The notes beneath the pieces were generated by a model. The model worked only from the letters and a program-made list of their open reading frames with translations. It made no database searches and had not been told where the DNA came from. A DNA stretch of 64,000 nucleotides from Candidatus Aminicenantes bacterium (GTDB lineage Bacteria > Acidobacteriota > Aminicenantia > UBA2199). Made by a program: the position numbers and the translations under genes. Every line of letters begins with the position of its first letter. Position 1 is the stretch's first letter. Positions 8,897 to 63,660 of this stretch are shown piece after piece. The stretch is from positions 16,563 to 80,562 of the forward strand of contig DAOWCY010000006.1 of NCBI GenBank assembly GCA_030639305.1, written 5' to 3'.

Positions 8897-9015
8897 ACCT
8901 CCGGCGGCCCTGCCGGGGGCCAAACTTTTGTAAAAGTTTGATCAAAACTTTTGATTAGCGATACGCTTTTCTGCTTTGAGGAACGTTCTTCGTTTGCACC
9001 GCGTCCCGGGGCCTA
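8897..9015. repeat. Intergenic modular repeat element, orientation 1 (GCCTCCGGCGGCCCTGCCGGGGGCCAAACTTTTG.AAAAGTTTGATCAAAACTTTTG...)
   Basis: Matches the family seen about 20 times in this window. Contains the GATC-centred palindrome AAAGTTTGATCAAAACTTT. Confidence 0.8.
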
Positions 9016-9113
9016 CAATTGACCGGTGGTAATAGCTGTATAGACTATATTAAAAACTACCCGCCCATCTTATACCGACCGGCAGCCCCTTATAGGCTCC
9101 CCGCACCGCGGGG

Positions 9114-9926
9114 TTAATAAAAGATAATGCCGACCTCCGCGCCGATGCGGGCTTGCAAGAGAGAGGCGGCAGAACCCCGGTTGACGGCGATCTCTAAGTT
9201 CCGGTGGCTGCCGATCAACATAAACGGCCCCGATCCGGCCAGGGCATAAGTTTTAAAAAAACCCTCGATCTCCCGGCCGTTAACTTCTACTTTAAAACCC
9301 CCCGCCCCCGCCTCCTCGAGAGCAGTATAAAGAAAATCTTCGCTCACATTAGTCATAATATTACCGAATTTGTCGATATAAGCCACCCGGGCGCTGATGG
9401 AGTTTTGAGTTTTTGTGGGCAAATAGGCGGCATCTACGATAAAATCACAGTAGGGGGAAGCGATTTCCTCCAGGGCGATGCCTGCCCCTAAGTAAGCTGC
9501 CGCAGGCGCCATCTTGTCCCGGGCTTCGAAAGTAGAATTACCGCGGATCAAAAAATATTTTTCCTTATCTAAGATAGAGACCGTTGTGTTTTCTTTTTGT
9601 AAGATAGGCGTCAGTACGCCGTTATCCGGGCCGATAAAATATCGCTCTTCGTGCCTGGCCAGGAGTATGCCGCGCCCAGTGCCCACACCCGGGTCCACCA
9701 CTACCAAAAAAATCGTCCCGGTGGGGAAAAAGGGGTAGGTTTTTTCTACTACGAAAGAGGCGGCTATAGTGCTGTATGAAGGGATTTCGTTGGTTATGTC
9801 GATGACTTCCATATGGGGATTTATTTGTTTGATTACCCCTTTCAGGACGCCGCTGAAGAAATCCTGATTGCCGAAATCGGTGATTAGCCCGCAGTAGGAT
9901 TTATTTGTTTTCCCGGTTTGCTTCAT
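9114..9926 (-). CDS. SAM hydroxide adenosyltransferase family protein (DUF62; fluorinase/chlorinase-like SAM hydrolase fold)
   Basis: N-terminal GLITDFGNQDFFSGVLKGVI matches the DUF62 LTTDFG..D.YVG.MKGVI signature. Length is 270 aa. Confidence 0.7.
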   Translation of the reverse strand: MKQTGKTNKSYCGLITDFGNQDFFSGVLKGVIKQINPHMEVIDITNEIPSYSTIAASFVVEKTYPFFPTGTIFLVVVDPGVGTGRGILLARHEERYFIGPDNGVLTPILQKENTTVSILDKEKYFLIRGNSTFEARDKMAPAAAYLGAGIALEEIASPYCDFIVDAAYLPTKTQNSISARVAYIDKFGNIMTNVSEDFLYTALEEAGAGGFKVEVNGREIEGFFKTYALAGSGPFMLIGSHRNLEIAVNRGSAASLLQARIGAEVGIIFY

Positions 9927-9951
9927 TTTTTGCTCCTTAGTTTAGAGTCGA

Positions 9952-10519
9952 TTATAAAATTTTTTCTAAGATTTTATAAACTTCGGTTGAGGTTCCTTTG
10001 AGTTTCCCCGACTTCTTGTTCTCTTCATCGAGCTTTTTGGCATTCTCTATCGCCTTGTTTAAATTCTTTTTTAACATTTCGTAGAAATTTTTCTTTTTTT
10101 GATAGTTTTGTGATTTTTGATAATCGGGGATATATTTCTTTAGTTCATGGGTGATGAGGCCGGCGCAGTTATTAAATTCTTTGGCTGTAAATTTATAATG
10201 CAGTAAGAACCATATCTCGAAGCAGGGAGTTGAGATAATAAATTCGATTTTAGGCCCTTGTTTTAAATCGCCTTGCTTTAATGCATCACCGTCTACAATA
10301 CAGAATGCCATGTCATAGTCCCGTTCTTTCTGTTTCTTTTTTGCATATTTCCGACGGCGTTGACCTTTTGGGATTGTATATGTCTATTTTTATATTTGAC
10401 AGCCTTTCCTTTCTTTTTAAATTCTCAAAGTAAATTTTTTCACATGAGCCTTCGCATACAACCAGGAAAGTACTCTTTAAAGGGCGATATTTCTTTCTTC
10501 TCTTAAAATCTTTACTCAC
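9952..10519 (-). pseudogene. RloB-like (AbiLii-like, TOPRIM-related) protein split by a 1-nt frameshift near 10311-10315
   Basis: Upstream piece (10313..10519) has LVVCEGSCEKIYF, an RloB-type CEGxxTExxYF N-terminus. Downstream piece (9952..10311) continues in another frame. Reading that frame upstream gives ERDYDMAFCIVDGD, which contains the family acidic motif, so the two ORFs were one gene. Confidence 0.55.
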
Positions 10520-14174: not shown

Positions 14175-14400
14175 TCTTTTTTACCACGAAGGACACGAAG
14201 GGCACGAAGCGGGATTGTGTCCGCAATTGGCGAAGAGTTTTTTGTAACGATGAACCGGGGCTTACCTGGCGCCGCAGGGAACGCTTTTGATTCTAAATTA
14301 TAAAAAGTTTTGATTAAACTTTTTCAAAGGTGCGGTGTGCCGCGGCCCCCAACTTCAATTTAATGGGGGCATCACCCGGCAGGGTCGCCGAAGGCAAGTA
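14170..14400. repeat. Intergenic modular repeat element, orientation 2 (...AAAAGTTTTGATTAAACTTTTTCAAAG...CCCGGCAGGGTCGCCGAAGGCAAG)
   Basis: Same family. Its 3' module creates the false N-terminal extension ...ASPGRVAEGK of ORF 14330. Confidence 0.75.
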
Positions 14401-14404
14401 TTAT

Positions 14405-16050: not shown

Positions 16051-16330
16051 CCTCACGGCGCACCCAGCCTATAAGCCGCTTCGCGGCAGGAGCCAACGAT
16101 GGCTGTTTATTGTGTAGAAAAACGTATCGCTCATAAAAAGTTTTGCCCCGTGCGCACGGGGAGGCGTTGAGCGGCTTCGCCGCAGGAGCCAACGATGGCC
16201 GTATATTGTGTAGAAAAGCGTATCGCTCATCAAAAGTTTTTGGAAGTCCAGAAACCTTTTTTCAAAAAAGTTTTTGGTCGCCGAAGGCAAAGCCCCCGGC
16301 AGGGTCGCCGAAGGCAAAGTAATTTCATAG
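16040..16330. repeat. Composite repeat block with an internal tandem duplication (two copies of about 100 bp containing GCCGCTTCGCGGCAGGAGCCAACGATGGC...TGTGTAGAAAA.CGTATCGCTCAT.AAAAGTTTT) plus hairpin module CCCCGTGCGCACGGGG and the terminal GGCAGGGTCGCCGAAGGCAAAG module
   Basis: Direct reading: the two copies at about 16070-16145 and 16170-16245 are nearly identical. ORFs 15938..16192, 16069..16317, 16195..16437 and 16230..16415 are translations of this repeat. Confidence 0.75.
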
Positions 16331-19134: not shown

Positions 19135-19275
19135 TCACCCGGATACCGGGAAAAACAAAGCCCGCGGCGCGGGCACCCTATAAGCAGAACCGCGGGGGGA
19201 CGGCGTCCCCAGCCTATAAGCCGCTGCGCGGCAAAAACAGCAGCGGCGGGGAATCCAAAACCCGAAGTGTGATAA
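19135..19275. repeat. Repeat element of the hairpin sub-family (GCCCGCGGCGCGGGC...GGGACGGCGTCCCC...AGCCTATAAGCCGCTGCGCGGCAAAAACAGCAGCGGCGGGGAATCCAAAACCCG)
   Basis: The same module occurs in reverse orientation at 45880-45960 and inside CDS 22863..24470 (about 23522-23583). Confidence 0.7.
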
Positions 19276-20893: not shown

Positions 20894-21654
20894 AGAAAGG
20901 ACGCTTAATGGTTGGGATAAGCGGTATTTTATTAATTATCGCAGTAGTGTTTGTTTATTTATCGTTCTATTTTTTTCCCACTGTAGAAGACATCAACAAG
21001 TATAGACGGGAAGCAAAAGATATAAAAGCGCGGCTAGCTGATTTCGGGCAAGTGGAGAGAAATTTTTCTTTTCCCGACGAAAAAGAGGAAGATTATTTTG
21101 AAAAAGCGGGAAAGGAATTTAAAAATAAAATCCCCAAAATAAGGGGCAAAGGTGATTTAGCCCGGCTGCTGGACCCGGTTTCCGGTTATTTGCGGGAACT
21201 GGCCGGGGCAGATGGCATCGCAGCTCTTGTTATCGAGCCGGGCAGCGAAGAGGCTGGGAAAGAAGCAGCGGGTTTTTTAAAATACCGGGTTATGCTGCTG
21301 CGTTTTACCGGGGAATTAGGAAAAGGGCTTAATTTTATCAACCACATTCCCTGGGGTAAATATTACATAGGCGTGGATAAAATCACCCTATCCGGGAGCG
21401 GGGAGCTGCCCGGCTTCGGGGTTAAACTCAGGGTCTATTATTTCGCTACCGGAGGAGCTTCCGCGCAAACGGACGCAGCCCGGGATACTGCAAAAACCGG
21501 CGAAGGGGGTTTAGAGATCGATTTCGATTCGGAAATCTTATTGGAGCGGGTGTATTATAATGTACCCGAACGTTACATAAAAAGAGAACTGCCCACCGCC
21601 CCACTCGCGCCCCGTACGCAGGGGCAGCGTGTGAGCGCTTTTGATTTTAAATAA
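20890..21654 (+). CDS. Membrane-anchored hypothetical protein (possible PilO/GspM-like). The last 20 residues are encoded by a repeat element.
   Basis: N-terminal TM (MVGISGILLIIAVVFVYLSFYFF) then a coiled coil. The C-terminal ...PTAPLAPRTQGQRVSAFDFK is a translation of repeat module GGGGCAGCGTGTGAGCGCTTTTGATTTTAAA (21596-21655). Confidence 0.35.
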   Translation: MKKGRLMVGISGILLIIAVVFVYLSFYFFPTVEDINKYRREAKDIKARLADFGQVERNFSFPDEKEEDYFEKAGKEFKNKIPKIRGKGDLARLLDPVSGYLRELAGADGIAALVIEPGSEEAGKEAAGFLKYRVMLLRFTGELGKGLNFINHIPWGKYYIGVDKITLSGSGELPGFGVKLRVYYFATGGASAQTDAARDTAKTGEGGLEIDFDSEILLERVYYNVPERYIKRELPTAPLAPRTQGQRVSAFDFK

Positions 21655-21720
21655 ACAAAAGTTTTGATCAAACTTTTTCAAAAGTTTGGCCCCCGGCAGG
21701 GCCGCCCAATCCTGTGTCTT
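21596..21720. repeat. Modular repeat element (orientation 2) overlapping the 3' ends of two convergent genes
   Basis: ...CAGGGGCAGCGTGTGAGCGCTTTTGATTTTAAATAAACAAAAGTTTTGATCAAACTTTTTCAAAAGTTTGGCCCCCGGCAGGGCCGCC. Confidence 0.8.
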
Positions 21721-21865
21721 TAGCGATTTCCTGACATTTTTGCAGGGCTTCCCTGGCATATTCTATGCCTAATTTCTCTTTTAATTCGGAGAATGAAATC
21801 TTTGCTTTTTTAAATCCATGCTTAACAAAATCAACCTCGTTAATAGAAACGCTTAAAGTCCTCAT
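21668..21865 (-). CDS. Small hypothetical protein, possibly ribbon-helix-helix-like. The C-terminal 14 aa are repeat-derived.
   Basis: MRTLSVSINEVDFVKHGFKKAKISFSELKEKLGIEYAREALQKCQEIAKDTG, then GLGGPAGGQTFEKV from the repeat. Confidence 0.25.
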   Translation of the reverse strand: MRTLSVSINEVDFVKHGFKKAKISFSELKEKLGIEYAREALQKCQEIAKDTGLGGPAGGQTFEKV

Positions 21866-21994
21866 AAATTTTTCCTCGTTATAAATATATAGTATAAATC
21901 GCCGCAAAAATCAACCCCGGCAAAAAAAATCATGCCTTTACTCCTTGCCGGAGGCCCCGCGGCGCGGGGAGAGGAAATTCCTGAACGCAGCCAA

Positions 21995-22862: not shown

Positions 22863-24470
22863 TTGAAATCCGGCTGTTTTTTGTATAAAATAAACAATGG
22901 TAAAAAAAACGATATGAATAAATTGCAAAACGAAATCCCAGGCAGCCGGGCAAAACTATATATGTACCTCTATATTATTATTACCTGCCTGCTCTGTTTC
23001 GGGGCAACCGTTTTCCTGCCCTTAGATCCGGGCTATAAAAGACTGCTGGAACAACCGACTAAAATCCTGTTGAAAACTCCGATGGCGGCGCTCTTTTTTA
23101 CTTTTTGTTTTGTGATGCTGTTCTTTTTGCAATTCAAACTGACTGAAACTATTAATAAGAAAAAAGCCGTCCTGATCTTAATTATCGTGGGAATTATTTA
23201 TTTTGTTTCCATGCCTTTTTTCTCATCGGATATTTTCCTGTATACTTTCAAAGGAAAAATACAAGCCGAACTTTCTCTTAATCCTTACGAATTCGTGAAA
23301 TATTTCGATACCCCTTACCAATACCTGTCGCCCTGGGTTTTCGTGCCCCTGGCCTACGGCCCTTTGACCAATTTGGTTTTTAAAACTTTTTATTTCCAGG
23401 GCCTTTCGCCGGTGGCAAATATGTATGTCCTGAAAGCTGTTTTCCTGCTCTTTTATGCAGGCACCGTCCTAATGGTCTACAAATATCTACAGCGGGAAAA
23501 CAAGCCCAGCACCCAGCGGGTGCACCCTATGAGCCGCGGCGCGGCAAAAACAATAGACGACGGGGAATCCAAAACCCGCAGTTTGCTAAACAAGCAGAGC
23601 CTAAACGACGAAACGGGGAAAAATTTCGTGTTTTTTGCTCTTTCACCGCTGCTCCTCATCGAAGGTCTCCTCTGCGCCCACTTAGATGTGATGCCGCTTT
23701 TTTATTTTATTCTTTCGCTTATTTTTTTACAGAGTGGAGCTTCAGAAATCATCAAAAACGTGCCTCCGGCGGCCAAAAACCTTTTTGAAAAAAGGTTTCC
23801 GGACTTCCAAAAACTTCTGTTGAGCCGCTTCGCGGCAAATGTTTTTTTTCCGCTCAGTTTTTTCTGCCTGGGGATGGCCGCCGCATTCAAAGTAAACTAT
23901 GCCATTTTTATGCTTCCCTTCCTGATCGAAAGCATGAGAAAAAATAAATGGCACTTCCTGCACGGCGCTTTTTTTGTCCTGCCGGTGGCTGCTTCCATGA
24001 TATTCTATCCCGATATTAACAAATATATCGGCTCTATTAAATACGTGGCCTCGCTGACCGGCGTCTCCTGTATAAAACTTTTCGATAAAATCAAACCGCT
24101 GCAGTACCTGTTTCTTGTTTTAATCGCAGCGGCATTCGTTTACTTTCTTTATCTCTACCTCAAAAAAAGAATCGACGTTTTTCGATTCTCTTTTATTTTT
24201 TTTATGATCTTCCTGTTTTTTAACAAAATTTTCCAACCCTGGCATATTTTCCCCATCTACGGGCTGCTCCTATTCCTAAAACCGCGAAAATTCGATTATT
24301 TCGGTTTGCTGTCCATGACAGGGATATATTCGGTGTATTTTATTTTTTACCAGTGGAATGAGATGCAGAACTTTATCGCATCTGTAATAATCCTGTGCGC
24401 AATCGGTTATACGGTTATTTCAGAATTAATCGCCGTCAAAAAAACAGCAGGGAGGCAGAGTGCAAGATAA
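22863..24470 (+). CDS. Polytopic membrane protein (GT-C / DUF2029-like glycosyltransferase candidate) with two in-frame repeat-element-derived segments
   Basis: More than 12 hydrophobic helices. Residues ...VHPMSRGAAKTIDDGESKTRSLL... (about 23522-23583) and ...PPAAKNLFEKRFPDFQKLLLSRFAAN... (about 23762-23843) are translations of repeat modules also seen at 19160-19270 and 16230-16270 (revcomp). The ORF stays open across both. Confidence 0.45.
   Translation: MKSGCFLYKINNGKKNDMNKLQNEIPGSRAKLYMYLYIIITCLLCFGATVFLPLDPGYKRLLEQPTKILLKTPMAALFFTFCFVMLFFLQFKLTETINKKKAVLILIIVGIIYFVSMPFFSSDIFLYTFKGKIQAELSLNPYEFVKYFDTPYQYLSPWVFVPLAYGPLTNLVFKTFYFQGLSPVANMYVLKAVFLLFYAGTVLMVYKYLQRENKPSTQRVHPMSRGAAKTIDDGESKTRSLLNKQSLNDETGKNFVFFALSPLLLIEGLLCAHLDVMPLFYFILSLIFLQSGASEIIKNVPPAAKNLFEKRFPDFQKLLLSRFAANVFFPLSFFCLGMAAAFKVNYAIFMLPFLIESMRKNKWHFLHGAFFVLPVAASMIFYPDINKYIGSIKYVASLTGVSCIKLFDKIKPLQYLFLVLIAAAFVYFLYLYLKKRIDVFRFSFIFFMIFLFFNKIFQPWHIFPIYGLLLFLKPRKFDYFGLLSMTGIYSVYFIFYQWNEMQNFIASVIILCAIGYTVISELIAVKKTAGRQSAR
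23522..23583. repeat. Repeat module inserted in-frame inside CDS 22863..24470
   Basis: CACCCTATGAGCCGCGGCGCGGCAAAAACAATAGACGACGGGGAATCCAAAACCCGCAGT versus 19215-19265. Confidence 0.65.
23762..23843. repeat. Second repeat module inserted in-frame inside CDS 22863..24470
   Basis: GCCTCCGGCGGCCAAAAACCTTTTTGAAAAAAGGTTTCCGGACTTCCAAAAACTTCTGTTGAGCCGCTTCGCGGCA. Confidence 0.65.
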
Positions 24471-25281
24471 ATCGAAAGAAAAAGCCTTTTTCGACCGTTT
24501 TTCCGCTGTCAAAGAGTACGATGTGTTTACGCCCTACGGCTATAGATCGATCATCGAAGATTATCTAAAGTTAATCGGCAGCCGAGTTGCTAAAAAGGGT
24601 ACACCTGGGGAAACTAAACAAAAGTTTTTTGGGGGGTCCAGGGGGGCGATTTTTCAAAAAAGCCCCCCTGGTCGCCGAAGGCAAGAAAAGATAATCGACT
24701 TAGGCTGCGGCACCGGGAATTTTACTCGCAGGTTCGCCGCATCTTACGAAGCCCGTTTTTTCGGCCTCGATATTTCGCAAAAATCGGCGGCCCTGGCTGC
24801 CCGGTTGGACCCGGGGATAAACTACTGCGCCGGGGATATCGAACATTGTTGTTTTAAAAAGGAAAACTTCGACATAGTGCTTTTTTCCGGCGTACTGCAT
24901 CATTTCGAGGATTACGAAACCTGCCTGCGGGAAGGTTTCCGTTTATTAAAAAAAGGCGGCTGTATGCTCTCTTATGACCCCAATATTAAGAATCCCGCTA
25001 TGTGGCTCTACCGCCACCCGGCCTCTCCTTTTTTCTCGAAAAAAGGCAAAACCGACAACGAACAACTGCTCTCGGTTTCCCAATTAGCGTTATCTTTGCA
25101 AAAAACAGGCTTTACGAATATAGACGTCCACGGCATCGGCGGCGTCACTTTCAAGTATGTAGAATCGCGTGTAGGGCGGCTTTTACTGCCTTTTTACAAC
25201 CTTTTCGAAGCGCTGTTGGGACTCATTCCCCCGGCCAAAAAATACGGTTCTTTTGTTATCGCCTATGGAGAGAAAGCATGA
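24460..25281 (+). CDS. Class I SAM-dependent methyltransferase with a repeat-derived in-frame insertion just before motif I
   Basis: Motif I IIDLGCGTGNFT; acidic/post-I motifs follow. Residues KGTPGETKQKFFGGSRGAIFQKSPPGRRRQEK (about 24618-24695) are translated from the repeat module AAAAGTTTTTTGGGGGGTCCAGGGGGGCGATTTTTCAAAAAAGCCCCCCTGGTCGCCGAAGGCAAG (compare 46690-46765). Confidence 0.7.
   Translation: MQDKSKEKAFFDRFSAVKEYDVFTPYGYRSIIEDYLKLIGSRVAKKGTPGETKQKFFGGSRGAIFQKSPPGRRRQEKIIDLGCGTGNFTRRFAASYEARFFGLDISQKSAALAARLDPGINYCAGDIEHCCFKKENFDIVLFSGVLHHFEDYETCLREGFRLLKKGGCMLSYDPNIKNPAMWLYRHPASPFFSKKGKTDNEQLLSVSQLALSLQKTGFTNIDVHGIGGVTFKYVESRVGRLLLPFYNLFEALLGLIPPAKKYGSFVIAYGEKA
24618..24695. repeat. 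Repeat module inserted in-frame in the methyltransferase gene
   Basis: See the CDS 24460..25281 evidence. Confidence 0.65.
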
Positions 25282-26669
25282 AAATAGTCCTGATAGTTCC
25301 CCCCAGCCACACTCATTATGTGGTCCAGCCCCTGGGTCTAGGTTACTTAGCCACTGCTCTGCGCAGGGCCGGGTTCGACGATGTTTCGATTTTAGACAGC
25401 TTAAAGGAAAACCTCGATTTCGACAGCCTGCAGGAACGGCTTTTACAGATGCAGCCCGCGGTTGTTGGTTTTCAAGCCTATTCTTATGACTTTTCGCTGG
25501 TTGCCCGCAGCATTAGCGCCATAAAAAAGAAACTCCCCGATACCCTGACTGTATTGGGCGGACCGCATGTATCGGCCACCGGCGCTCTTGCCATGGAAGA
25601 ACTGCCCGCTTTAGATTTTGCTTTTGGGGGCGAAGGGGAAACCGGGCTGCCCCTATTAATGAAACGAATTCTGCAGGACGAAGAAATTCCCTACCGGGAA
25701 ATTCCCGGGCTCATTTACCGGGAAAGCGGCAAGGTACAGCAGGTGCCGCGAGCTGTGATCGAGGAGATAGACTCATTGGGTTTCCCCGCCTGGGATTTGA
25801 TGGTTCCCGGGGAGTATCCCGACAGTCCCCAGGGCGGGTTTTACAAGCAGTTTCCCATAGCTTCTATATCTACAACCCGCGGCTGTCCTTATTTGTGCAC
25901 TTTTTGTGGCAGCGCAGTCAACATGGGCAGGAAGCTGCGTTTCCGGGATATTTCCAGGGTACTTGAAGAGATTCGATTATTATATAACGATTACGGGGTA
26001 CGTGAATTTCATATTATCGACGACATGTTTAACGCCAAAAAGGAGCGGGTAGTGGAGTTTTGCGAAGGTATCCGCAAGTACAAGTTGGACATTAATTACA
26101 CCTTTCCCAATGGGCTGCGGCTCAACCTATTGGATTTAGAGATGCTGCGAATGATGAAAGAAACCGGCGCATATTCGTTTAATGTCGGCATCGAAAGCGG
26201 TTCGCAGCGTATTTTAGACAAGATGAAAAAGAACCTCACCTTACAGTTGATCGAAGAGAAAGTCGATTTGATCGTAGAAGCCGGTTTAGAACCCTGCGGA
26301 TTTTTTATAATCGGGTTCCCCGGCGAAACCGAGGAGGACATAAAAGCTACTATTAAATTTGCCAAAAAGTTAAAATTAAAGCGTGCTCATTTCAGTAATT
26401 TTCTGCCGCTGCCCGGTACGGAGGCCACCCGGGAGTTGTTGGCAAGCAAAGAGATATCGAAACTTTCCTGGGAGGAAATGTTTTATTCGAAGGTGCCTTA
26501 TGCGCCCAGGGGAATATCTAAGAAAAGGTTAAAAGCCTTACAGCGGCGGGCGTATCTTGAATTTCATTTACGGCCCTCGATATTGTTTAAGGTGGTTCGT
26601 GACATAAAGAGTCTCAATCATTTGAAGTTAACTTTGAAAAGGATAAAAGACTACCTCTTCAAACGATAA
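25278..26669 (+). CDS. B12-binding-domain radical SAM protein
   Basis: Start MKIVLIVPP (ATGA overlap with the methyltransferase stop). The N-terminal Rossmann-like B12-binding region has ...VVGFQAYSYDF. The radical SAM CxxxCxxC is TTRGCPYLCTFCGS. The track start at 25002 is an out-of-context upstream extension overlapping the methyltransferase gene. Confidence 0.8.
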   Translation: MKIVLIVPPSHTHYVVQPLGLGYLATALRRAGFDDVSILDSLKENLDFDSLQERLLQMQPAVVGFQAYSYDFSLVARSISAIKKKLPDTLTVLGGPHVSATGALAMEELPALDFAFGGEGETGLPLLMKRILQDEEIPYREIPGLIYRESGKVQQVPRAVIEEIDSLGFPAWDLMVPGEYPDSPQGGFYKQFPIASISTTRGCPYLCTFCGSAVNMGRKLRFRDISRVLEEIRLLYNDYGVREFHIIDDMFNAKKERVVEFCEGIRKYKLDINYTFPNGLRLNLLDLEMLRMMKETGAYSFNVGIESGSQRILDKMKKNLTLQLIEEKVDLIVEAGLEPCGFFIIGFPGETEEDIKATIKFAKKLKLKRAHFSNFLPLPGTEATRELLASKEISKLSWEEMFYSKVPYAPRGISKKRLKALQRRAYLEFHLRPSILFKVVRDIKSLNHLKLTLKRIKDYLFKR

Positions 26670-26800
26670 GCCCCACATGCGTGGGGGAGCGTTGAGCCGC
26701 TTCGCGGCAGAGCAGCGTTTTTGATTCTAAATTATAAAAAGTTTTGATCAAACTTTTTCAAAAGTTTGGCCCCCGGCAGGGTCGCCGAAGGCAAAGAAAT
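26670..26800. repeat. Full-length modular repeat element (orientation 2), reference copy
   Basis: CCCCACATGCGTGGGGG-AGCGTTGAGCCGCTTCGCGGCAGAGCAGCGTTTTTGATTCTAAATTATAAAAAGTTTTGATCAAACTTTTTCAAAAGTTTGGCCCCCGGCAGGGTCGCCGAAGGCAAAG. Confidence 0.85.
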
Positions 26801-26815
26801 TAAAAGAAAATAAAA

Positions 26816-45539: not shown

Positions 45540-45659
45540 GTTTAGTTATAAGCTCGGTGTGCTGAAGAATTTTTCAACATCTATAACATTATATCATAGT
45601 GCAGCCGTTGGTTGCAAATAAAAAAATCGTAACTATTCAGTTCTGTAAAAAATTAAAAC

Positions 45660-45745
45660 AGACTTGCCTCCGGCGGCCCTGCCGGGGGCCAAATTTTTGA
45701 AAAAGTTTGAACAAAACTTTTGTTTAAAAAAGCGAAAAACCCCCT
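45660..45745. repeat. Partial modular repeat element (orientation 1)
   Basis: GCCTCCGGCGGCCCTGCCGGGGGCCAAATTTTTGAAAAAGTTTGAACAAAACTTTTG. Confidence 0.75.
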
Positions 45746-45869: not shown

Positions 45870-46080
45870 TTTTTTTCACACTGCGAGTATTGGATTCCCC
45901 GGCTGCTGCTGTTTTTGCCGCGGAGCGGTTTATAGGGTGCCCGCGCCGCGGGCTTTTACAGGATAATAATATAATGGTATAATGTTTTTTCAAGAGCGGA
46001 CGGCGTCCGCAGCTTATGAGGGGCCTGGGCGGGCGGCGTCCGCACCCCCGTGCCACGGGCCTGCTCGCCGAAGTTAGGAG
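45870..46080. repeat. Hairpin sub-family repeat block (reverse orientation of the 19135-19275 type). Contains GGTGCCCGCGCCGCGGGC and AGCGGACGGCGTCCGC hairpins.
   Basis: GGATTCCCCGGCTGCTGCTGTTTTTGCCGCGGAGCGGTTTATAGGGTGCCCGCGCCGCGGGC..., matching the revcomp of 19200-19265. ORFs 45755..45982 and 45847..46056 are translations of it. Confidence 0.7.
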
Positions 46081-46626: not shown

Positions 46627-46765
46627 GCCCACCACGTGGGCAGGGTATAAGCTGCTTCGCAGCAGGGGCAGCGGGTGAGCGCTTTTGATTTTCACTCATA
46701 AAAAGTTTTTTGGGGGTCCAGGGGGCAATTTTACAAAAACGCCCCCTGGCCGCCGGAGGCAAGGC
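46625..46765. repeat. Modular repeat element (orientation 2, GGGGGTCCAGGGGGC variant)
   Basis: CCCACCACGTGGG hairpin ...GCTGCTTCGCAGCAGGGGCAGCGGGTGAGCGCTTTTGATTTTCACTCATAAAAAGTTTTTTGGGGGTCCAGGGGGCAATTTTACAAAAACGCCCCCTGGCCGCCGGAGGCAAGGC. Confidence 0.8.
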
Positions 46766-46810
46766 TCGATTTTCTCTTGAGGGCCGCCGTTATTCATGAT
46801 ATAATAATTT

Positions 46811-48517
46811 GTGGGAAAAATAAAAGAATTAGAAGCTGAAGTATTCCGTAAGATCGCTGCCGGGGAGGTAGTGGAACGTCCCCTCTCCGCGGTCAAGGAA
46901 TTGGTGGAAAATTCCATAGACGCCGGGGCCGGTGAGATCAAAGTCGAAGTCCGCGACGGCGGCAAAAGATTTATCAAAGTTACCGACAACGGCGACGGCT
47001 TCGAACCCGACGATATCGAAAAAGCCTTCAAAAGACACTCTACTTCGAAATTAAACCGGTTAGAGGATTTTAACAGTCTCGACACCCTGGGGTTCCGTGG
47101 TGAAGCGCTGCCCTCGATTTTGGAAGTCTCGAAAATCCTCTTGAAGACTTCTTCTAATACTGAAGGAAAGGGCACCTTTTGTACTTTTGAGGAGGGCAAA
47201 TTAGTCGAACGGGAGGAAATCGCTTTTAATAAAGGCGCAGCCATCGAAATCCAGGACCTTTTTTATAATTTCCCCGTCAGGAAAAAATTTTTAAAAAGCG
47301 AAAGGAGCGAATTAAACCAGGTTATCGCTTTTCTCGAGCAGACTGCCCTGTCTAACTTTCACATCGCCTTTTCTTTGAGCAATAATGACCGGCTAATCTT
47401 TTTTTACAATAAAGCCGCCACTTTGAAAGAGAGAATCTACCAGGTATTCGGCAAAGAATTTCTCGACGGTCTGCAGGAAGTGAATTTCGAGTATGGTCAA
47501 TATAAACTAAACGGTTTTATCTCGAAGATCAATACCGGCGTCGCAGTCAAGAAGTACCAGCATTTTTTTGTCAACAAACGGCCTATCCGGGAGAGAACCC
47601 TCTTCGCCGCCCTAAACAACACCTTCCGGCGTTTCCTCGAAAAGAGCAAGAATCCCGTCGGCATATTGTCTTTAGAAGTACCGCCCCGGGAGATCGACGT
47701 GAACGTCCACCCCATGAAATTAGAGATCAAATTCGAGGATTCCAGCGCCATCTATCAATTAGTAAAACGGGGTATAGAGAGTACTTTCGGCAGCAGCGGC
47801 GGCGCAGCCGCGGACAGGTCTTTAGATTTTCTTTACCGGGATAAGAGCAGCCCGGAACAGCCCCCCGACGCTTTCACCGCCTCCCCCGGTCAAACCGCCC
47901 CCGGACCTGGATTCGCCCAGGCGCAGTTATTCAGCGGTGAGATAGCTCACATCGAGGAAGGGTTTTACCTGATCGGGCAGTACCTGAACTCTTACATCCT
48001 GGTAGAGAAAGAAGGCGCACTGTTGGTCGTTGACCAGCACAATGCCGACGAGCGGGTGAATTTCGATCACCTAAAAAAAGAGTACCGGGAGAACAAAGTG
48101 GTATCTATTACGCCTCTTTTCCCTATCATCATCGAGCTGACCCACTCGGAAGTATCCCGTTTAGATGAGCGCAAGCAGGAGATGCTCAGCAAAGTCGGTT
48201 TTGATTTACGGCCTTTGAGTGGAAATTCGTATGATGTGAAATCTTTTCCCCAGGTATTGGATGAGAGAAGCATTAAGGATGCTGTTTTGACTATATTGCA
48301 TTTGCAGCAAGGGGATGTAGATTTCGAGGACAAGGTTTTGGCTGAGGTTGCCTGCAAGAGTGCGATAAAGGTGAATCACCGGCTTTCCCCCGAGAAAATG
48401 AGGAGTATAGTCAAGGATTTATTTCGTTCTACTAATGCGTATTTTTGTCCTCACAAGCGGCCGATTATAGTGGAGTTTGGCCGGGAGCAGATCGAGAAGC
48501 TTCTCAAGCGCAAGTGA
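46811..48517 (+). CDS. mutL: DNA mismatch repair protein MutL
   Basis: N-terminal GHKL ATPase IAAGEVVERPLSAVKELVENSIDAGAGEIKVEV...DNGDG. C-terminal dimerization region. Confidence 0.85.
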   Translation: MGKIKELEAEVFRKIAAGEVVERPLSAVKELVENSIDAGAGEIKVEVRDGGKRFIKVTDNGDGFEPDDIEKAFKRHSTSKLNRLEDFNSLDTLGFRGEALPSILEVSKILLKTSSNTEGKGTFCTFEEGKLVEREEIAFNKGAAIEIQDLFYNFPVRKKFLKSERSELNQVIAFLEQTALSNFHIAFSLSNNDRLIFFYNKAATLKERIYQVFGKEFLDGLQEVNFEYGQYKLNGFISKINTGVAVKKYQHFFVNKRPIRERTLFAALNNTFRRFLEKSKNPVGILSLEVPPREIDVNVHPMKLEIKFEDSSAIYQLVKRGIESTFGSSGGAAADRSLDFLYRDKSSPEQPPDAFTASPGQTAPGPGFAQAQLFSGEIAHIEEGFYLIGQYLNSYILVEKEGALLVVDQHNADERVNFDHLKKEYRENKVVSITPLFPIIIELTHSEVSRLDERKQEMLSKVGFDLRPLSGNSYDVKSFPQVLDERSIKDAVLTILHLQQGDVDFEDKVLAEVACKSAIKVNHRLSPEKMRSIVKDLFRSTNAYFCPHKRPIIVEFGREQIEKLLKRK

Positions 48518-48665
48518 CCCCGTGCGCACGGGGAGGCGATAAGCGGCTTCGCCGCATGGGGCAGCGTGTGAGCGTTTTTGATTCTAACTCATAAAAAGTT
48601 TTGATCAAACTTTTTCAAAAGTTTGGCCCCCGGCAGGGCCGGCGGCGGCGGTGAATTCTGGATAA
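48515..48665. repeat. Full modular repeat element (orientation 2)
   Basis: CCCCGTGCGCACGGGGAGGCGATAAGCGGCTTCGCCGCATGGGGCAGCGTGTGAGCGTTTTTGATTCTAACTCATAAAAAGTTTTGATCAAACTTTTTCAAAAGTTTGGCCCCCGGCAGGGCCGGCGG. Confidence 0.85.
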
Positions 48666-53899: not shown

Positions 53900-54060
53900 G
53901 GTTGTTTTTTTTGGTCGATCCCCACTCGCGTGGGGAGGCTATGAGCGGCTTCGCCGCAAGAGGCAGCGTGTGAGCGCTTTTGATTTTAAATAATAAGAAG
54001 TTTTGATCAAACTTTTACAAAAGTTTGGCCCCCGGCAGGGCCGCCGGAGGCAAGGATGGG
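53900..54060. repeat. Full modular repeat element (orientation 2)
   Basis: CCCCACTCGCGTGGGGAGGCTATGAGCGGCTTCGCCGCAAGAGGCAGCGTGTGAGCGCTTTTGATTTTAAATAATAAGAAGTTTTGATCAAACTTTTACAAAAGTTTGGCCCCCGGCAGGGCCGCCGGAGGCAAGG. Confidence 0.85.
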
Positions 54061-54072
54061 GCTGAATGCTTA

Positions 54073-56001
54073 TTATACCCACAGCAGCAGTTCGGTTAGT
54101 TCTTTTTTTCCTAACTGCGCCTTCGGCCCCAAACGCACCTGCACTACCCCTTCTTTGTCTTCAGATACGATGCGGCGCAGTTCGGTGGTCACCACCCGCA
54201 TACGGTCATAAGTAGATAAATCAAAACTGCGCCGCCTATCGAAAGCACTCTTCCTATATCCCGGCGGCGGCGGCAGTTCTACCGCTTCGTTAATATTTCC
54301 GGCAAAATCTTCACGGCTGCTGATTTGCCCGCCTTCGAAGCAGAGCAGGATTCGCTTTTTTTCTTTGCCCACCGACTCCTGCCAAAAGAGTGTCGATTCG
54401 CTCAAAAGAGAAAACCAGCGCGAACGCCGCAGCAGGTGAGCGCCATGGCGGATAATGCCTTCCAGCATCGACGCTGCCGCTTCAGGCGTCCAAACTTTCT
54501 CTTCTTTTTCATCCTCCGCGGAGCTGCCGTTCTCATCTATTTCCGTGCTGTTTTTTCCCTCTTCTTCGAGCCCGGCTGCGGCCAGTTCTTTTAATTTGCG
54601 GCGGCTCAGTTCCTTGCCCAAAAGCAGCACCCTGTTAACAATATTCCCCGGAGGTATCATACTTGTCTGTCCCTGTTTAGCCTCATCAAATTGGCCTGTC
54701 CCCAAAAACTCATCATGCTCCCGGTAAAACAACTCGACCCCCTGCAAAAAAACCTCCAAACCGGGGGCATACTCTTCGGGAATCCCCAATAATTCAGCAC
54801 AAAAATTATTTTTTGCCTCCGGCGGCCTTGCCGGGGGCCAAACTTTTGAAAAAGTTTGAACAAAACTTTTATTTAATTTAGCCTGAAATTGGCCTGTCCC
54901 CTTTTCGAGCAACTCGATAATACCGGCCAGGGATTGCAGCGTTTGTACCGAAACTACCGGGCCAAGACGGTACACCTTATCCACTCCGGGAGCAGATTGT
55001 CGCAAATCCGAAGAAAAATAAAAAAGCCGCCGCTCCCCTTTCCGCAACGCTGCATTATAAGGCGGCGAGTGTTTTTTGATCTCATCAGATTCCAGCAAAG
55101 CAGCTTCTAAAGCCGATCCGGTCACCGTAATATCTAATTTATTGGCCTGGGTCAACATCTCTAAAGTGCGTTCAGAATGTTTGGCGCTCTTACGGAAATA
55201 ACTACCCACCCGCTGCTTCAAAGACGTTGCTTTGCCGATATAAAGCAGGTCGCCGTTGGAACGCAGCATCCGGTAAACACCGGGCAAGCCGGGCAAACCG
55301 CTTCGTTCCTTCGCCGCCATGGGGTAAACCCTTCCGGCGGAACCGGCCCCGGAAACAGCGGGTGGAGCTTCCAGCCATTCCCGCAGTTCCGGCAAGGTGC
55401 GGACGCCCCGCTGCTCTAAAAGTTTAACCGTTTCTTTCCAGGTGAAATTAGTGGCTTCGATGTGAGAGGCGCTGCGGCGCAGTTCAGGCACCGAATACCC
55501 CAAATAACCGGCTGCTGCCCGCAGACCTTTGCGAGGCAATTGAGGCAGCAGGCGTTTGATCACCCGGTGGGTACAAATAATCTCGAAAGGAAAAGGTTTT
55601 CCGGGCGACCATTTTTGATGCATTTCCCTGAGATAAGGTTCCTCGAAACGGGCAAAATGAATCACCGTAGGGCATAGTCCTCTTTTATTGGCTGCCGCTG
55701 TTCTTTTTACCGCCCGAAACAGTTTTTTCCAAGCTTTTTTGGGGGGCAGGCCGCGGGCCGCGTCCTCCGCAGAAATGCCGGTGATGCGTTTTACCGCGGT
55801 AGGGATGATTTCGTCATGCGGCAGTTTGATGAGATAAGAGGTGATTTTTTCGTTATTTTCCCGGCTTGAAGCCCGCACCCTGGCCCAGCCGATTTCCAGC
55901 AGACGCCCTTTTGCCGGGTTAGAACCGGTAGCCTGGCAGTCTACTATTAATACTTCCAGGCTGGATAACAGGTTTTCTTTTTTGAGATTCGATACTCGCA
56001 T
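54073..56001 (-). CDS. DnaQ-like 3'-5' exonuclease domain fused to a GIY-YIG (Cho/UvrC-like) nuclease domain. Carries an in-frame repeat-derived segment.
   Basis: N-terminal LEVLIVDCQATGSNPAKGRLLEIGW (DEDD exonuclease motif I). GIY-YIG GVYRMLRSNGDLLYIGKATSLKQRVGSYF. Residues ...LNKSFVQTFSKVWPPARPPEAKNNF... are the translation (revcomp) of repeat module 54815-54880. Confidence 0.65.
   Translation of the reverse strand: MRVSNLKKENLLSSLEVLIVDCQATGSNPAKGRLLEIGWARVRASSRENNEKITSYLIKLPHDEIIPTAVKRITGISAEDAARGLPPKKAWKKLFRAVKRTAAANKRGLCPTVIHFARFEEPYLREMHQKWSPGKPFPFEIICTHRVIKRLLPQLPRKGLRAAAGYLGYSVPELRRSASHIEATNFTWKETVKLLEQRGVRTLPELREWLEAPPAVSGAGSAGRVYPMAAKERSGLPGLPGVYRMLRSNGDLLYIGKATSLKQRVGSYFRKSAKHSERTLEMLTQANKLDITVTGSALEAALLESDEIKKHSPPYNAALRKGERRLFYFSSDLRQSAPGVDKVYRLGPVVSVQTLQSLAGIIELLEKGTGQFQAKLNKSFVQTFSKVWPPARPPEAKNNFCAELLGIPEEYAPGLEVFLQGVELFYREHDEFLGTGQFDEAKQGQTSMIPPGNIVNRVLLLGKELSRRKLKELAAAGLEEEGKNSTEIDENGSSAEDEKEEKVWTPEAAASMLEGIIRHGAHLLRRSRWFSLLSESTLFWQESVGKEKKRILLCFEGGQISSREDFAGNINEAVELPPPPGYRKSAFDRRRSFDLSTYDRMRVVTTELRRIVSEDKEGVVQVRLGPKAQLGKKELTELLLWV
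54815..54880. repeat. Repeat module (orientation 1) lying in-frame inside CDS 54073..56001
   Basis: GCCTCCGGCGGCCTTGCCGGGGGCCAAACTTTTGAAAAAGTTTGAACAAAACTTTT. Confidence 0.7.
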
Positions 56002-56639: not shown

Positions 56640-56830
56640 CCCATGCCTTCGGCGACCCTGCCGGGGGGGGCGGCGCACCTATGGATTATTTTTTTCTTGC
56701 CTTCGGCGACCCTGCCGGGGGCCAAACTTTTGAAAAAGTTTGAACAAAACTTTTTATAATTTAAAAGCAAAAGCACCAGCCTGCCGCGAAGCGGCTTATT
56801 GCCTCCCCACGCGAGTGGGGCCACGCCGCG
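56640..56830. repeat. Modular repeat element, about 1.5 copies (orientation 1)
   Basis: GCCTTCGGCGACCCTGCCGGGGG appears twice, then CCAAACTTTTGAAAAAGTTTGAACAAAACTTTTTATAATTTAAAAGCAAAAGCACCAGCCTGCCGCGAAGCGGCTTATTGCCTCCCCACGCGAGTGGGG. Confidence 0.8.
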
Positions 56831-56833
56831 GGC

Positions 56834-61841: not shown

Positions 61842-61853
61842 GTTACCTCCTTT

Positions 61854-62475: not shown

Positions 62476-62519
62476 GCTAATATTATATCCAAAACAGGCA
62501 CAATGTCAATACTTTCGCA

Positions 62520-62670
62520 CCAAGTTTTGCTTGCCTCCGGGGTGCGACGCACCCAGCCTTTTTGCCTCCCCGTGCGTACGGGGGCCGCGGGCTTGCAAAA
62601 ATGATACACTTCCTTTATAATCGAAATTTAAAAAGCGGACGGCGTCCGCACCCTATTGGACGGCAAAACC
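62520..62670. repeat. Partial repeat elements (hairpin modules GGTGCGACGCACC, CCCCGTGCGTACGGGGG, AGCGGACGGCGTCCGC)
   Basis: TTGCCTCCGGGGTGCGACGCACCCAGCC...GCCTCCCCGTGCGTACGGGGGCCGCGGGC...AAAAAGCGGACGGCGTCCGCACCCTATTGG. Confidence 0.6.
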
Positions 62671-62741
62671 TGAGCCATGTATAGACGGTTTGTTTTGGCA
62701 TACTTTTAGGGATAAAAATCAACAGGAAAAGGAGACTTGAA

Positions 62742-63569
62742 ATGCGTGATTTTGCAGGAAAAAATGCTTTAATTACAGGCGGAGCCAGCGGCATCGGTTT
62801 GGCCGCGGCAAAAGAATTGATTCGCAGCGGTGCGAATGTAACGATTTTCGACTTGAACGGCGAGGCGTTGGGCAGCGCTGTAAAAGAACTGGAAGCTTTT
62901 GCCGGTGAAGTGAATGCGGACGTGCGCTGTGAAGGCGAAACCGGTGATGTTACCGATTTCGAAGCCCTTAAAAAAGTTGTAGACAGCATGGAGGAAAAAG
63001 GTAACCCGGTGGACCTTTTATTAACTTGCGCCGGGATAGCACATCCCACTGCGCTGGCGGAATTAGATCTCGACATCATCAAAAAAACGGTAGATATAGA
63101 TTTATTGGGCACTATTTATTCCTGTCGCGCCGTATTGCCCGGTATGATAAAAAGGGACGGCAGAGGTCACATTGCCTTAGTCAGTTCTTTGGCCGGGATT
63201 CTCGGTGTTTATGGGTATTCCGCTTATGGAGCCGCCAAGTTCGGCGTCCGCGGGTTAGGCGAGGTGCTGCTCCAGGAATTGAAACCCTACGATATTAACG
63301 TCACTATTTTGTTTCCCCCGGATACGGACACCCCGCAGTTTGAATATGAGAACCGGTTCAAACCCGAAGCCACGAAAGCCATCGCCGGGACGATTAAGCC
63401 GGTTTCCGCCGAATATGTGGCCCGCTGTTTAGTAAAGGGGATCCGGAAGAACCGTTTCCAGGTGATACCTACTTTTACCGGCAAAGTTACGAATATGGCG
63501 TCTAAACTTTTTGCGCCTATCTTGCGTTGGGCCCTAGTCGGTGTGGTAAAGAAAGCAGTTAGAAAATAG
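62742..63569 (+). CDS. SDR-family NAD(P)-dependent oxidoreductase
   Basis: ALITGGASGIGLAAAKEL (TGxxxGxG). Catalytic SSLAG...YSAYGAAK (YxxxK). Confidence 0.85.
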   Translation: MRDFAGKNALITGGASGIGLAAAKELIRSGANVTIFDLNGEALGSAVKELEAFAGEVNADVRCEGETGDVTDFEALKKVVDSMEEKGNPVDLLLTCAGIAHPTALAELDLDIIKKTVDIDLLGTIYSCRAVLPGMIKRDGRGHIALVSSLAGILGVYGYSAYGAAKFGVRGLGEVLLQELKPYDINVTILFPPDTDTPQFEYENRFKPEATKAIAGTIKPVSAEYVARCLVKGIRKNRFQVIPTFTGKVTNMASKLFAPILRWALVGVVKKAVRK

Positions 63570-63660
63570 GCCCGCGGTCCGAGCACCCTAATTAAAAGTT
63601 TTGATCAACCCCACTGCGTGGGGAGGCGTTTAGCTGTTTCGCAGCAGGGAGGTGTTTTTG
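63570..63660. repeat. Short repeat element (AAAAGTTTTGATCAA, CCCCACTGCGTGGGG hairpin, GCTGTTTCGCAGCAGGG)
   Basis: CCTAATTAAAAGTTTTGATCAACCCCACTGCGTGGGGAGGCGTTTAGCTGTTTCGCAGCAGGGAGG. Confidence 0.65.

Follow-up and report, generated by a model that had tools for sequence, protein, structure and literature searches.

The stretch considered here, referred to below as the window, comprises 64,000 nucleotides (nt) of contig DAOWCY010000006.1 (GenBank assembly GCA_030639305.1, positions 16,563 to 80,562 of the forward strand), and carries protein-coding genes, among them those for EF-G, MutL and CoaE, together with spacers in which small hairpin modules recur in varying combinations. These modules belong to a single repeat family, which is the subject of this account. 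The DNA was sampled from deep-sea sediment of the Site-F cold seep in the South China Sea (PMC9357000). The window sequence recurs without change in ENA scaffold_119 of SAMN18200497 and in contigs of GCA_023135565.1, and it has been assembled independently from at least four samples at 99.9-100% identity, in one of them as an 81.6-kb scaffold. Named relatives of its EF-G (68-82% identity) come from Aminicenantes or Acidobacteriota, besides unclassified 'bacterium' records and one Omnitrophota record, and include no Desulfobacterota. EF-G and its syntenic neighbours group the contig with Aminicenantes, and by this gene affinity the host is assigned to an uncultured Aminicenantes (Acidobacteriota) genome.

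Extent and modular build of the repeat family

A first-pass annotation of the window had described a pervasive family of modular repeats, and when the sequences were read a member was found at every coordinate that it had listed. Within the window a GATC-centred 20-mer motif has 13 matches against 0.01 expected, the 28-mer GGCCCCCGGCAGGGCCGCCGGAGGCAAG has 8 against 0, and the 12-mer GCCGCCGGAGGC, with up to two mismatches allowed, has 35 against 5.5. Among the families returned by repeat detection are one of 7 x 123 nt and one of 4 x 132 nt. A profile derived from eight of the copies gave 20 placements with E<0.01, and with self-BLAST it assigned these copies to defined strands. The catalogue in Table 1 combines the profile and anchor scans with a reading of every spacer, hairpin-only copies and copies with alternative tails being added, and holds 27 instances that together make up 3,135 nt, or 4.9% of the window. 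The family does take up a substantial share of the DNA, at figures that replace the roughly 20 copies, 2.5 kb and 4% first given, and the statement that it occupies most intergenic spacers comes down to 16 of the 29 spacers of at least 60 nt. Four copies are intragenic and lie in three genes (E6, E7, E20 and E25).

The family is dispersed and not a local segmental duplication, the alternative named in advance, since it spans the whole 81.6-kb scaffold, extending beyond the window, breaks other contigs of the metagenome-assembled genome (MAG), and has its 3′ module in many other genomes. The NCBI contigs of this MAG terminate within repeat copies. One contig from another sample (L081) is 99.93% identical to window positions 46826-54054 and, from exactly the end of copy E19 (54054), carries different genes over its positions 7231-8792, ending in another, inverted copy; the switch is either a repeat-mediated rearrangement or a misassembly.

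The commonest unit, present in seven full copies, is about 130 nt long and has the order hpA-hpB-M3-M4-M5. The hpA module is a hairpin with a 6-bp G+C stem and a loop of 3-4 nt, followed by A-SSS-TATAAG, and occurs in about 20 copies in the 64 kb, while hpB reads GCSGC-TTC-GCSGC and M3 (GGCAGCGTGTGAGCGCTTTTGATT) is a small hairpin that leads into a T-rich run. M4 reads AAAAGTTT-TGATC-AAACTTTT-TC-AAAAGTTTGG, where an 8-bp stem closes a loop of 5 nt and the 8-mer recurs a third time, and is not a perfect palindrome; the 'perfect GATC-centred palindrome' of the earlier description (AAAGTTTTGATCAAAACTTT) never occurs exactly, every match having two or three mismatches. M5 reads GGCCCCCGGCAGGGYCGCCGRAGGCAAG and is represented by the 28-mer GGCCCCCGGCAGGGCCGCCGGAGGCAAG. 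The earlier list of modules was incomplete, as it did not separate the type II tails, the type III tail of about 100 nt and the M5′ variant. Type II copies consist of hpA-hpB with the tail GGGGAATCCAAAACCCGMAGTGTG and an A-run (at 19160, 23509 and 45870), and in two of them the terminal A-run is 9-10 bases long. In M5′, found at 46700-46765 and 24612-24688, a hairpin CCAGGGGGC...GCCCCCTGG stands ahead of the constant YCGCCGRAGGCAAG.

Type III copies consist of hpA and the ~100-nt tail (8990-9098 on the minus strand and 42344-42455 on the plus strand). The tail has the pattern GGGGCTGCC...GGGTAGTTT...TATACAG...ACCGGTCA.TTGTA.GCCCCGGG.CGCGG and in each case comes after hpA, downstream of a SAM_HAT gene in one copy and of a radical-SAM gene in the other. 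Rfam gives no match to it, and its two copies, which are too few for covariation analysis, differ by one compensatory change among 21 predicted pairs.

As had been noted at first, modules are shuffled, repeated in tandem or truncated, being seen alone, in tandem and with alternative tails. The tandem duplication placed at about 16070-16245 was recovered at 16074-16240, with 92% identity and a 96-nt period. An element does follow the EF-G gene, and it begins near 14265 instead of 14170, positions 14175-14264 being unique sequence. M4-M5 occurs without other modules at 54811 and 45661, as does hpA at 39455 and 62634, and in one copy outside the window M4-M5 is inverted relative to hpA-hpB. These alternative combinations and the inverted copy identify the modules as separable units, and M4-M5 is an independent unit in its own right.

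The hpA and hpB hairpins are under pairing constraint. Across 15 copies 97.6% of alignment cells are paired, and double-sided changes are found in 7 of 11 pairs, namely all six hpA pairs and one hpB pair. The covariation score was reached by none of 500 shuffles, and slid registers are only 33-61% paired. M5, by comparison, is near-invariant, with 68 of 129 copies identical, and forms a continuous 10-bp stem, including two G-U pairs, on the reverse strand only; covariation gave no signal on this strand asymmetry, M5 being too conserved to be tested in this way. A paired change of C>T and G>A (GCCGCCGGAGGC to GTCGCCGAAGGC) occurs in M5 and M5′ contexts (14384, 16277, 16304, 24671, 26781, 56645 and 56699), always with both substitutions together (7 of 7 copies) and with the 7-bp palindrome YCGCCGR preserved, and may reflect subfamily descent or a paired constraint.

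Table 1. Copies of the repeat family in the window, with their composition and gene context
Copy	Position	Strand	Composition	Context
E1	8894..9113	-	hpA (CCCCGCGGTGCGGGG), ~100-nt type III tail, M4-M5	hpA 0 nt past stop of SAM_HAT gene (9114-9926); TTGACA-17-TATAAT promoter of next gene 2 nt beyond E1
E2	14265..14402	+	M3, M4 (centre GATT), short insert, M5 variant TCGCCGAAGGC	EF-G/Lactamase_B spacer
E3	16051..16324	+	two tandem hpA-hpB units (96-nt period, 92%), palindrome variant, two M5 tails	begins 0 nt past ABC_tran stop; ABC_tran C-terminus same as orthologues
E4	19160..19275	+	type II: two hpA hairpins, hpB, tail GGGGAATCCAAAACCCGAAGTGTG and A-run	divergent spacer; sense to downstream gene at 19308
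E5	21597..21722	+	5′-degenerate, M3-M4-M5	open reading frame 20890-21654 runs in and stops at TAA inside E5
weak copy	21950..21990	-	hpA-like hairpin CCCCGCGCCGCGGGG and CCTCCGGCAAGG	27 nt past stop of gene 21995-22786
E6	23509..23590	+	type II	intragenic, in frame; within 41-residue insert without counterpart in homologues P0123 and P0125
E7	23757..23830	-	GCCTCCGGCGGCC and AAACCTTTTT/AAAAAGGTTT palindrome	intragenic, antisense, in frame; not in homologues
E25	24612..24688	+	M5′ (GGGGGGTCCAGGGGGGC...GCCCCCCTGGTCGCCGAAGGCAAG)	intragenic, in frame; N-terminal part of methyltransferase gene (24460-25281)
E8	26666..26801	+	full hpA-hpB-M3-M4-M5	0 nt past stop at 26669; next start codon ~21 nt beyond M5 end GAAGGCAAAG
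E9	33404..33544	-	full composite	second unit of head-to-tail pair
E10	33545..33672	-	full composite	22 nt past stop of gene 33690-37022; convergent spacer
E11	37084..37224	-	full composite	second unit of head-to-tail pair
E12	37224..37319	-	hpA-hpB-M3-M4 without M5	0 nt past stop of CNNM/CBS gene (37317-38597)
hpA-only copy	39440..39470	-	GCGGACGGCGTTCGC ACCC TATGAG	divergent spacer; sense to Rex-like gene
E13	42329..42450	+	hpA and type III tail	radical-SAM open reading frame 41273-42352 stops at TAA of element TATAAG
E14	45629..45745	-	M4 (centre GTTC), M5, motif Z CTGAATAGTTAC downstream	just upstream of promoter of gene 42459-45539
E15	45870..45960	-	type II: hpA, hpB, GGGGAATCCAATACTCGCAGTGTG tail and A-run	
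E16	45985..46065	-	hpA-type hairpin cluster (GCCCGTGGCACGGG, GCGGACGCCGTCCGC)	
E17	46627..46770	+	hpA-hpB-M3 and M5′	0 nt past nitroreductase stop; mutL promoter then follows
E18	48513..48658	+	full composite	0 nt past mutL stop; coaE promoter ~30 nt downstream
E19	53916..54072	+	full composite and Z-like motif	convergent spacer; hpA 24 nt past one gene's stop, M5 reverse complement 22 nt past the other's
E20	54811..54885	-	M4-M5	intragenic, in frame; encodes AKLNKSFVQTFSKVWPPARPP
E21	56641..56833	-	full composite and extra M5 tail	0 nt past stop of gene 56834-57991
E22	62545..62610	-	hpA (CCCCGTACGCACGGGG), second hairpin, CGGAGGCAAGC	just upstream of perfect TTGACA-16-TATAAT promoter of minus-strand toxin gene
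E23	62634..62660	+	hpA only (GCGGACGGCGTCCGC ACCC TATTGG)	between promoter 62593-62621 and start codon 62742, hence a sense copy in the 5′ untranslated region
E24	63570..63664	+	truncated: degenerate hairpin, M4 fragment, hpA, hpB, M3 start	begins 0 nt past stop of gene 62742-63569

On either side of copy E4, at 19139-19147 and 19276-19284, stands a 9-nt direct repeat, AAAAACAAA, which may be due to chance since the flanks are of low complexity.

Placement at genes, insertion and spread

The placement of the copies follows two rules. In all eight co-directional spacers that hold an element it lies in sense orientation, for which the chance expectation is about 1/256, and in divergent spacers each copy points at the gene that it precedes. 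In eight genes of the window hpA begins 0 nt past the stop codon, all three stop codons being represented, and two further open reading frames (ORFs) stop on a codon inside an element. Contact with the stop codon also occurs in two relatives, L103 and L104. Strict sense orientation and stop-codon contact are new observations; both were missed at the first reading, as were the independence of modules and the occurrence of one module across phyla and in plasmids. The stop codon as a part of the element itself was considered and rejected, given the three types of stop, the orthologue-like C-termini and the copies away from gene ends that lack a stop. ABC_tran ends in the same C-terminus as its orthologues, so the native stop has been kept and lies outside the element.

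Consensus sigma-70 promoters of the next gene are found just downstream of elements. With stop contact upstream and the next promoter downstream, the elements would fill the 3′ untranslated region (UTR), and, as judged from these positions, retained copies most likely persist as putative 3′-UTR hairpins. In a terminator scan with loose settings, the reverse complement of M5 with CAAACTTTTT and M3 with TTTTGATTTT pass, and hpA, hpB and sense M5 have no U-run.

The copies are insertions into DNA that was already present, some of them in frame within genes, which upholds the description of the repeats as small non-coding modular inserts. In the RNase_T/GIY-YIG protein (642 residues) a 21-residue segment encoded by M4-M5, including AKLNKSFVQTFSKVWPPARPP, corresponds to a gap in 12 homologues of 584-602 residues; the inserted DNA is a lone module of 63 nt. 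Two inserts, one of 41 residues and one of about 29, distinguish the membrane protein encoded at 22911-24470 from homologues that are 57% and 40% identical, which lack both. These three in-frame segments are thus not found in homologous proteins, and the reading frame is preserved (alignments A1 and A4). Copy E25 in the methyltransferase gene is a fourth in-frame copy and a putative insertion. An unrelated 53-residue ORF from another assembly (P0149) contains PPAAKNLFEKRFLDFQKLLLSRFAA, the peptide of the antisense intragenic copy E7, which places a variant of the E7 module in at least one other genome.

Comparison of gene order leads to the same result for spacers. Relatives whose EF-G is 79-82% identical keep the order EF-G/Lactamase_B/ABC_tran, with an EF-G/Lactamase_B spacer of 25-97 nt against 230 nt in the window and a second spacer of 72-184 nt against 358 nt. 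Each syntenic relative holds at most one module, such as hpA-hpB directly past the EF-G stop in L103 or an M5-like hairpin directly past the ABC_tran stop in L104. No family member was found around mutL in more distant relatives (19 loci, about 170 kb, 53-63% identity of MutL, no common gene order), which serve as a negative control. From the syntenic and distant relatives taken together, the dense composite is a recent expansion in this lineage from modules that are single in relatives.

One module extends well beyond this lineage, reaching sulfate reducers in another phylum. An exact 23-mer across the M4/M5 junction is found in at least 73 stretches of species-representative genomes, and the matches listed include at least 18 loci in the complete genome of Desulfoluna limicola and others in D. 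spongiiphila and D. butyratoxydans, in a Desulfolunaceae MAG, and in Desulforapulum and Desulfobacteraceae MAGs, with single copies in Acidobacteriota and Aminicenantes MAGs. What the window has in common with Desulfobacterales is the 3′ module only (AACCTGTTTGTCAAACTTTTCAAAAGTTTGGCCCCCGGCAGGGCCGCCGGAGGC), about 60 nt of M4-M5 at near identity, often followed by GCTGAATAGTTAC and joined there with other local modules. The Desulfobacterales version reads TTTGTCAAAC, which lacks GATC. By crude ORF calls, M4-M5 lies more often in convergent than in divergent spacers in these genomes (26 against 7). In two Desulfolunaceae genomes with flanks 94-95% identical, a composite of about 210 nt occupies the same spacer in opposite orientations, and in Desulforapulum (L027 5357-5505 and L041 2883-3033) two M4-M5 stand face to face as a unit of about 145 bp with inverted ends of about 55 bp. 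The module has no match in viral contigs or phage genomes.

The core of M5 is also carried by plasmids, with 30-34 nt at 97-100% identity in 16 PLSDB plasmids. It is a feature of the IncP-6 backbone (Rms149, pCOL-1-like KPC plasmids and others), located about 10 nt past a small ORF that closes the par-rep block and adjoining a hairpin-rich stretch. The sequence adjoining it may resemble an IncQ ssiA site. In one IncP-6 subgroup the hairpin is preceded by GATCAAAC-GCGACC-GTTTGG, as in M4, and a 2.9-kb plasmid has the M5′-like GGGGAGTCCAGAGGGGCAAAGCCCCTTTGGGCAAGGCCGAAGGCC at the equivalent place. The IncP-6-type plasmids with M5 encode a RepB-family primase and IncQ-type Mob proteins. With M5 present in IncP-6 backbones, broad-host-range plasmids become a plausible vehicle between phyla.

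Between IncP-6 subgroups the 24-nt imperfect hairpin is inverted exactly in place with identical flanks, so that L110 (1490-1525) reads GCCTCCGGCGGCCCTGCCGGGGGC and Rms149 (L112) reads GCCCCCGGCAGGGCCGCCAGAGGC; L108 (5990-6035) stands on the Rms149 side of this comparison. The largest subgroup has the inverted form, and the subgroup breakpoints coincide with the edges of the hairpin.

Several other features of the window stand apart from the repeats. The tetranucleotide CTAG is nearly missing, with 4 occurrences against 79.5 expected from trinucleotide counts, and this ratio (0.05) is far below that of every other 4-bp palindrome. On the minus strand, 5285-6975 holds four paralogous genes in tandem, each encoding about 132 residues, with a period of 420-427 nt; they are of the DUF7793 type, weakly SpoIIAA-like, and their neighbours are genes for a PAS histidine kinase and for two response regulators. 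Among the repeats, at 9952-11813 and 56019-62496, there are clusters of defence and toxin-antitoxin genes. They include RloB with an AAA_21 ATPase; a ParE toxin, upstream of which is a small gene without a match in Pfam; SLFN_AlbA_2/HATPase_c_4; an 878-residue AAA_23 protein; and a pair that is BrnT/BrnA-like by eye. A tandem 102-nt repeat (75% identity) at 31715-31918 is within a gene for a 921-residue AAA_16/TPR protein.

Identity and proposed mobility and retention of the repeats

Several identities were tried for the modules and set aside. No match to Rfam 15 is found at the gathering threshold, as the check proposed in the first-pass annotation revealed, with chance-level hits only up to E 5, and a search of the literature returned nothing specific on the motif strings or on repeats of Desulfobacterium or Aminicenantes. 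A coding role is rejected because the Desulfobacterales version and that of the window differ in length by 1 nt, which shifts the frame, and because the composite has stops in all six frames (by eye). A sigma-70 or sigma-54 promoter reading of M4-M5 fails on the hexamers and the GG/GC spacing, and a reading as a site for integration host factor (WATCAANNNNTTR) gives a partial match only. Integron attC cassettes were rejected because the flanking genes are housekeeping genes (EF-G, MutL, CoaE) on both strands with their own consensus promoters; no integrase was found, nor, by eye, RYYYAAC/GTTRRRY core sites at element ends.

The best reading is that of a new family, a lineage-specific expansion in Aminicenantes of small non-autonomous repeats built from hairpin modules. 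The repeats would resemble repetitive extragenic palindromes (REPs) and bacterial interspersed mosaic elements (BIMEs), would insert in frame in the manner of Rickettsia palindromic elements (RPEs), would be moved in trans by an enzyme that acts on hairpins, and would be retained in 3′ UTRs; this account is considered probable, with appreciable reserve. The earlier label 'REP/RPE-like' is apt. Under this account, we infer that copies are made by an enzyme that recognises hairpins in DNA and whose gene lies elsewhere, with a nuclease of the HUH type, for example a REP-associated tyrosine transposase (RAYT), or a relaxase/Rep-like protein as candidates. The M5 module may have been carried between phyla by broad-host-range plasmids. 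Retained copies would be transcribed as 3′-UTR hairpins and either be tolerated or serve as mRNA 3′-end or terminator structures.

Selection could act at the level of RNA or translation, a strong hairpin being perhaps tolerated only where the terminating ribosome unwinds it. REPs of E. coli at most 15 nt from a stop codon stall terminating ribosomes (PMC12306157), and by analogy the stop-touching copies of the window may act as a brake on them. In an earlier study cited there, about half of the REPs were placed within 15 nt of a stop codon (PMC12306157).

A number of results weigh against this account. The remark that no transposase lies nearby was borne out, as neither a transposase nor any other trans-acting enzyme or Y1/HUH gene was found in the window or the 8.8 kb beyond, and no RAYT (Y1 HUH, PF01797) in the 73 kb of scaffold examined. 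Clustering of all ORFs beside 130 copies in 73 other loci gave no recurrent enzyme ORF; a recurrent 1.2-kb ORF near copies, tried as a transposase, proved to be RibBA, and the ORFs between inverted module pairs (1-2.5 kb apart) are ordinary genes by Pfam. No insertion polymorphism was found within the species, the contigs of four samples being 99.9-100% identical with one junction change only. Insertion exactly behind all three kinds of stop codon is hard to explain by targeting at the DNA level. In Desulfobacterales M4-M5 has no strand bias (28 sense against 29 antisense by crude ORF calls), so the orientation rule is not a property of the shared module. Changes in hpA are nearly all from one Watson-Crick pair to another, with a single one-sided change, a pattern that fits constraint on DNA, whether acting on both strands or by way of templated correction of quasi-palindromes, at least as well as constraint on RNA.

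A doubtful possibility takes M5 (GCCCCCGGCAGGGCCGCCGGAGGC) as a portable cis-acting DNA signal for an HUH enzyme or primase of plasmid type. Borne on IncP-6/IncQ-like plasmids, it would be copied to chromosomes in single-stranded cassettes that include neighbouring hairpin modules, copied by the same class of enzyme. In Aminicenantes the cassettes would be captured exactly 3′ of stop codons and would act there as translation-coupled mRNA 3′-end elements. If true, this would be a mobility system distinct from transposable elements of the miniature inverted-repeat type (MITEs) derived from insertion sequences and from species-specific REP/RAYT pairs.

The family was first labelled as possibly MITEs, that is, deletion derivatives of insertion sequences with a DDE transposase that move by cut-and-paste and have terminal inverted repeats and target-site duplications. 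In the strict sense this label is not supported, as by eye no terminal inverted repeats were seen between the ends of the composite and no regular target-site duplication was seen. Size and copy number are compatible with classical MITEs, the facing M4-M5 pairs of Desulforapulum make a unit with inverted ends, and the 9-nt direct repeat at E4 could be a target duplication; other flanks, however, are A/T-rich and of low complexity, the two ends differ (hpA and M5) with no inverted similarity in eight aligned copies, and lone modules insert, as in the 63-nt case. Moreover, the inverted pairs flank ordinary genes without a transposase, and no ORF family recurs beside 130 copies in 73 loci. Classical MITEs are consequently judged unlikely.

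Slightly less likely still is that these are non-mobile regulatory or terminator elements of the host, selected as 3′-UTR structures and copied by ordinary duplication. Sense orientation, stop-codon contact and the promoters just downstream would all be expected of such elements, as would the T-rich tail of M3, the terminator-like score of reverse-complement M5 and the compensatory changes that preserve stems. Yet near-identical copies stand behind unrelated genes, others are in frame within three genes or in 5′ UTRs and divergent spacers, the family is missing or nearly so in relatives with the same gene order, and the module is shared with another phylum and with plasmids.

On a par with this stands the proposal that M5 and M5′ are scattered copies of a plasmid cis signal, a hairpin of the single-strand initiation (ssi) or oriT-like kind read by a plasmid-type primase or relaxase. 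The location of M5 beside a hairpin-rich stretch in a backbone that encodes a RepB-family primase and IncQ-type Mob proteins speaks for it, as does the 2.9-kb plasmid, whose GGGGAGTCCAGAGGGGCAAAGCCCCTTTGGGCAAGGCCGAAGGCC resembles the M5′ of the window, and IncQ ssi sites are known as 40-nt hairpin signals (PMC8567376). The plasmid motif nevertheless carries no functional annotation and may be just another insertion, and hundreds of chromosomal copies are hard to square with a role in replication or transfer.

The idea that the GATC core reflects Dam-type methylation or a GATC-specific nuclease did not hold up and is very improbable: the loop of the M4 hairpin does hold GATC in 9 of 13 window copies, yet the centre is GTTC in three others and GATT in one, the Desulfobacterales version is without GATC and plasmid versions are without M4 or have a different loop, the tetranucleotide is mildly under-represented in the window (observed/expected 0.73), and the conserved core of the family is M5. 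Scarcely credible is an artefact of assembly or binning, with chimeric joins or a mis-binned Desulfobacterales contig, since the contig breaks in repeats and the change of partner of L081 precisely where an element ends are set against the agreement of the independent assemblies, including the 81.6-kb scaffold, the placement in Aminicenantes by EF-G and its neighbours, and the presence of the common module in Desulfoluna limicola, an isolate whose genome is complete.

Taken as an expansion of mobile hairpin modules, the family brings to light a repeat system in a candidate phylum known chiefly from metagenomes, and accounts for MAG fragments that end in repeats and for proteins called 'partial'. 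It also provides three clean cases, outside Rickettsia, of repeats that add peptide segments to proteins. Small repeats are normally species-specific, and it is unusual for a non-coding module of about 60 nt to be near-unchanged in Aminicenantes and Desulfobacterota, with a core of 24-34 nt in clinical IncP-6 resistance plasmids, a pattern that points to recognition by a common enzyme and to dispersal on plasmids. Stop contact and sense orientation offer a testable link between the insertion or retention of repeats and translation termination. Experiments are feasible, as Desulfoluna is cultured and IncP-6 plasmids are easily manipulated.

Comparison with known repeat systems

The closest likeness in form is to the REPs and BIMEs of Enterobacteria and Pseudomonas, which are likewise short G+C-rich extragenic hairpins in high copy number, occur in mosaics with other short motifs and have no transposase inside the element. 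Placement after genes is also common to both, REPs lying after genes and many of them a few bases from the stop codon (PMC12306157, PMC2817692). The sequences are unrelated, however, and the arrangement differs: units in the window are head-to-tail (33404-33672, 37084-37319 and 16051-16240) and strand-specific, whereas those of BIMEs alternate and REPINs are inverted doublets. In contrast to REP/RAYT systems, no RAYT gene was found for the family in the 73 kb of scaffold examined, and unlike REPs it is also intragenic and has one module across phyla, REP families being usually species-specific.

RPEs are small palindromic repeats that insert in frame into coding genes, adding a peptide and leaving the gene intact (PMC10969869). 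The three in-frame insertions of the window resemble them in behaviour only, the host phylum being unrelated and the sequences presumably so too. RPEs, moreover, are single units of about 100-150 bp, whereas the intragenic pieces here are one module each, 63-123 nt in length, and the majority of copies lie between genes.

In their modular build the repeats recall the BOX (boxA-boxB-boxC) and SPRITE elements of Streptococcus pneumoniae and the neisserial intergenic mosaic elements (NIMEs), in which hairpin boxes vary in number and order as they do in the window. The dRS3 repeat of NIMEs is comparable to GCCGCCGGAGGC, the short quasi-palindrome that recurs at module borders. To our knowledge, neither stop-codon contact nor strict sense orientation has been reported for these families, which are unrelated in sequence and confined to one genus each. 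Clustering and nesting in spacers are also common to them and to the window, and modules that look terminator-like may be as well (PMC10969869). At the level of sequence the nearest known counterpart is the hairpin of the IncP-6 (IncG) backbone, 24-34 nt of which are identical or nearly identical to M5 (GCCCCCGGCAGGGCCGCCGGAGGC), and which is present as a single copy per plasmid at a fixed site, in either orientation according to subgroup.

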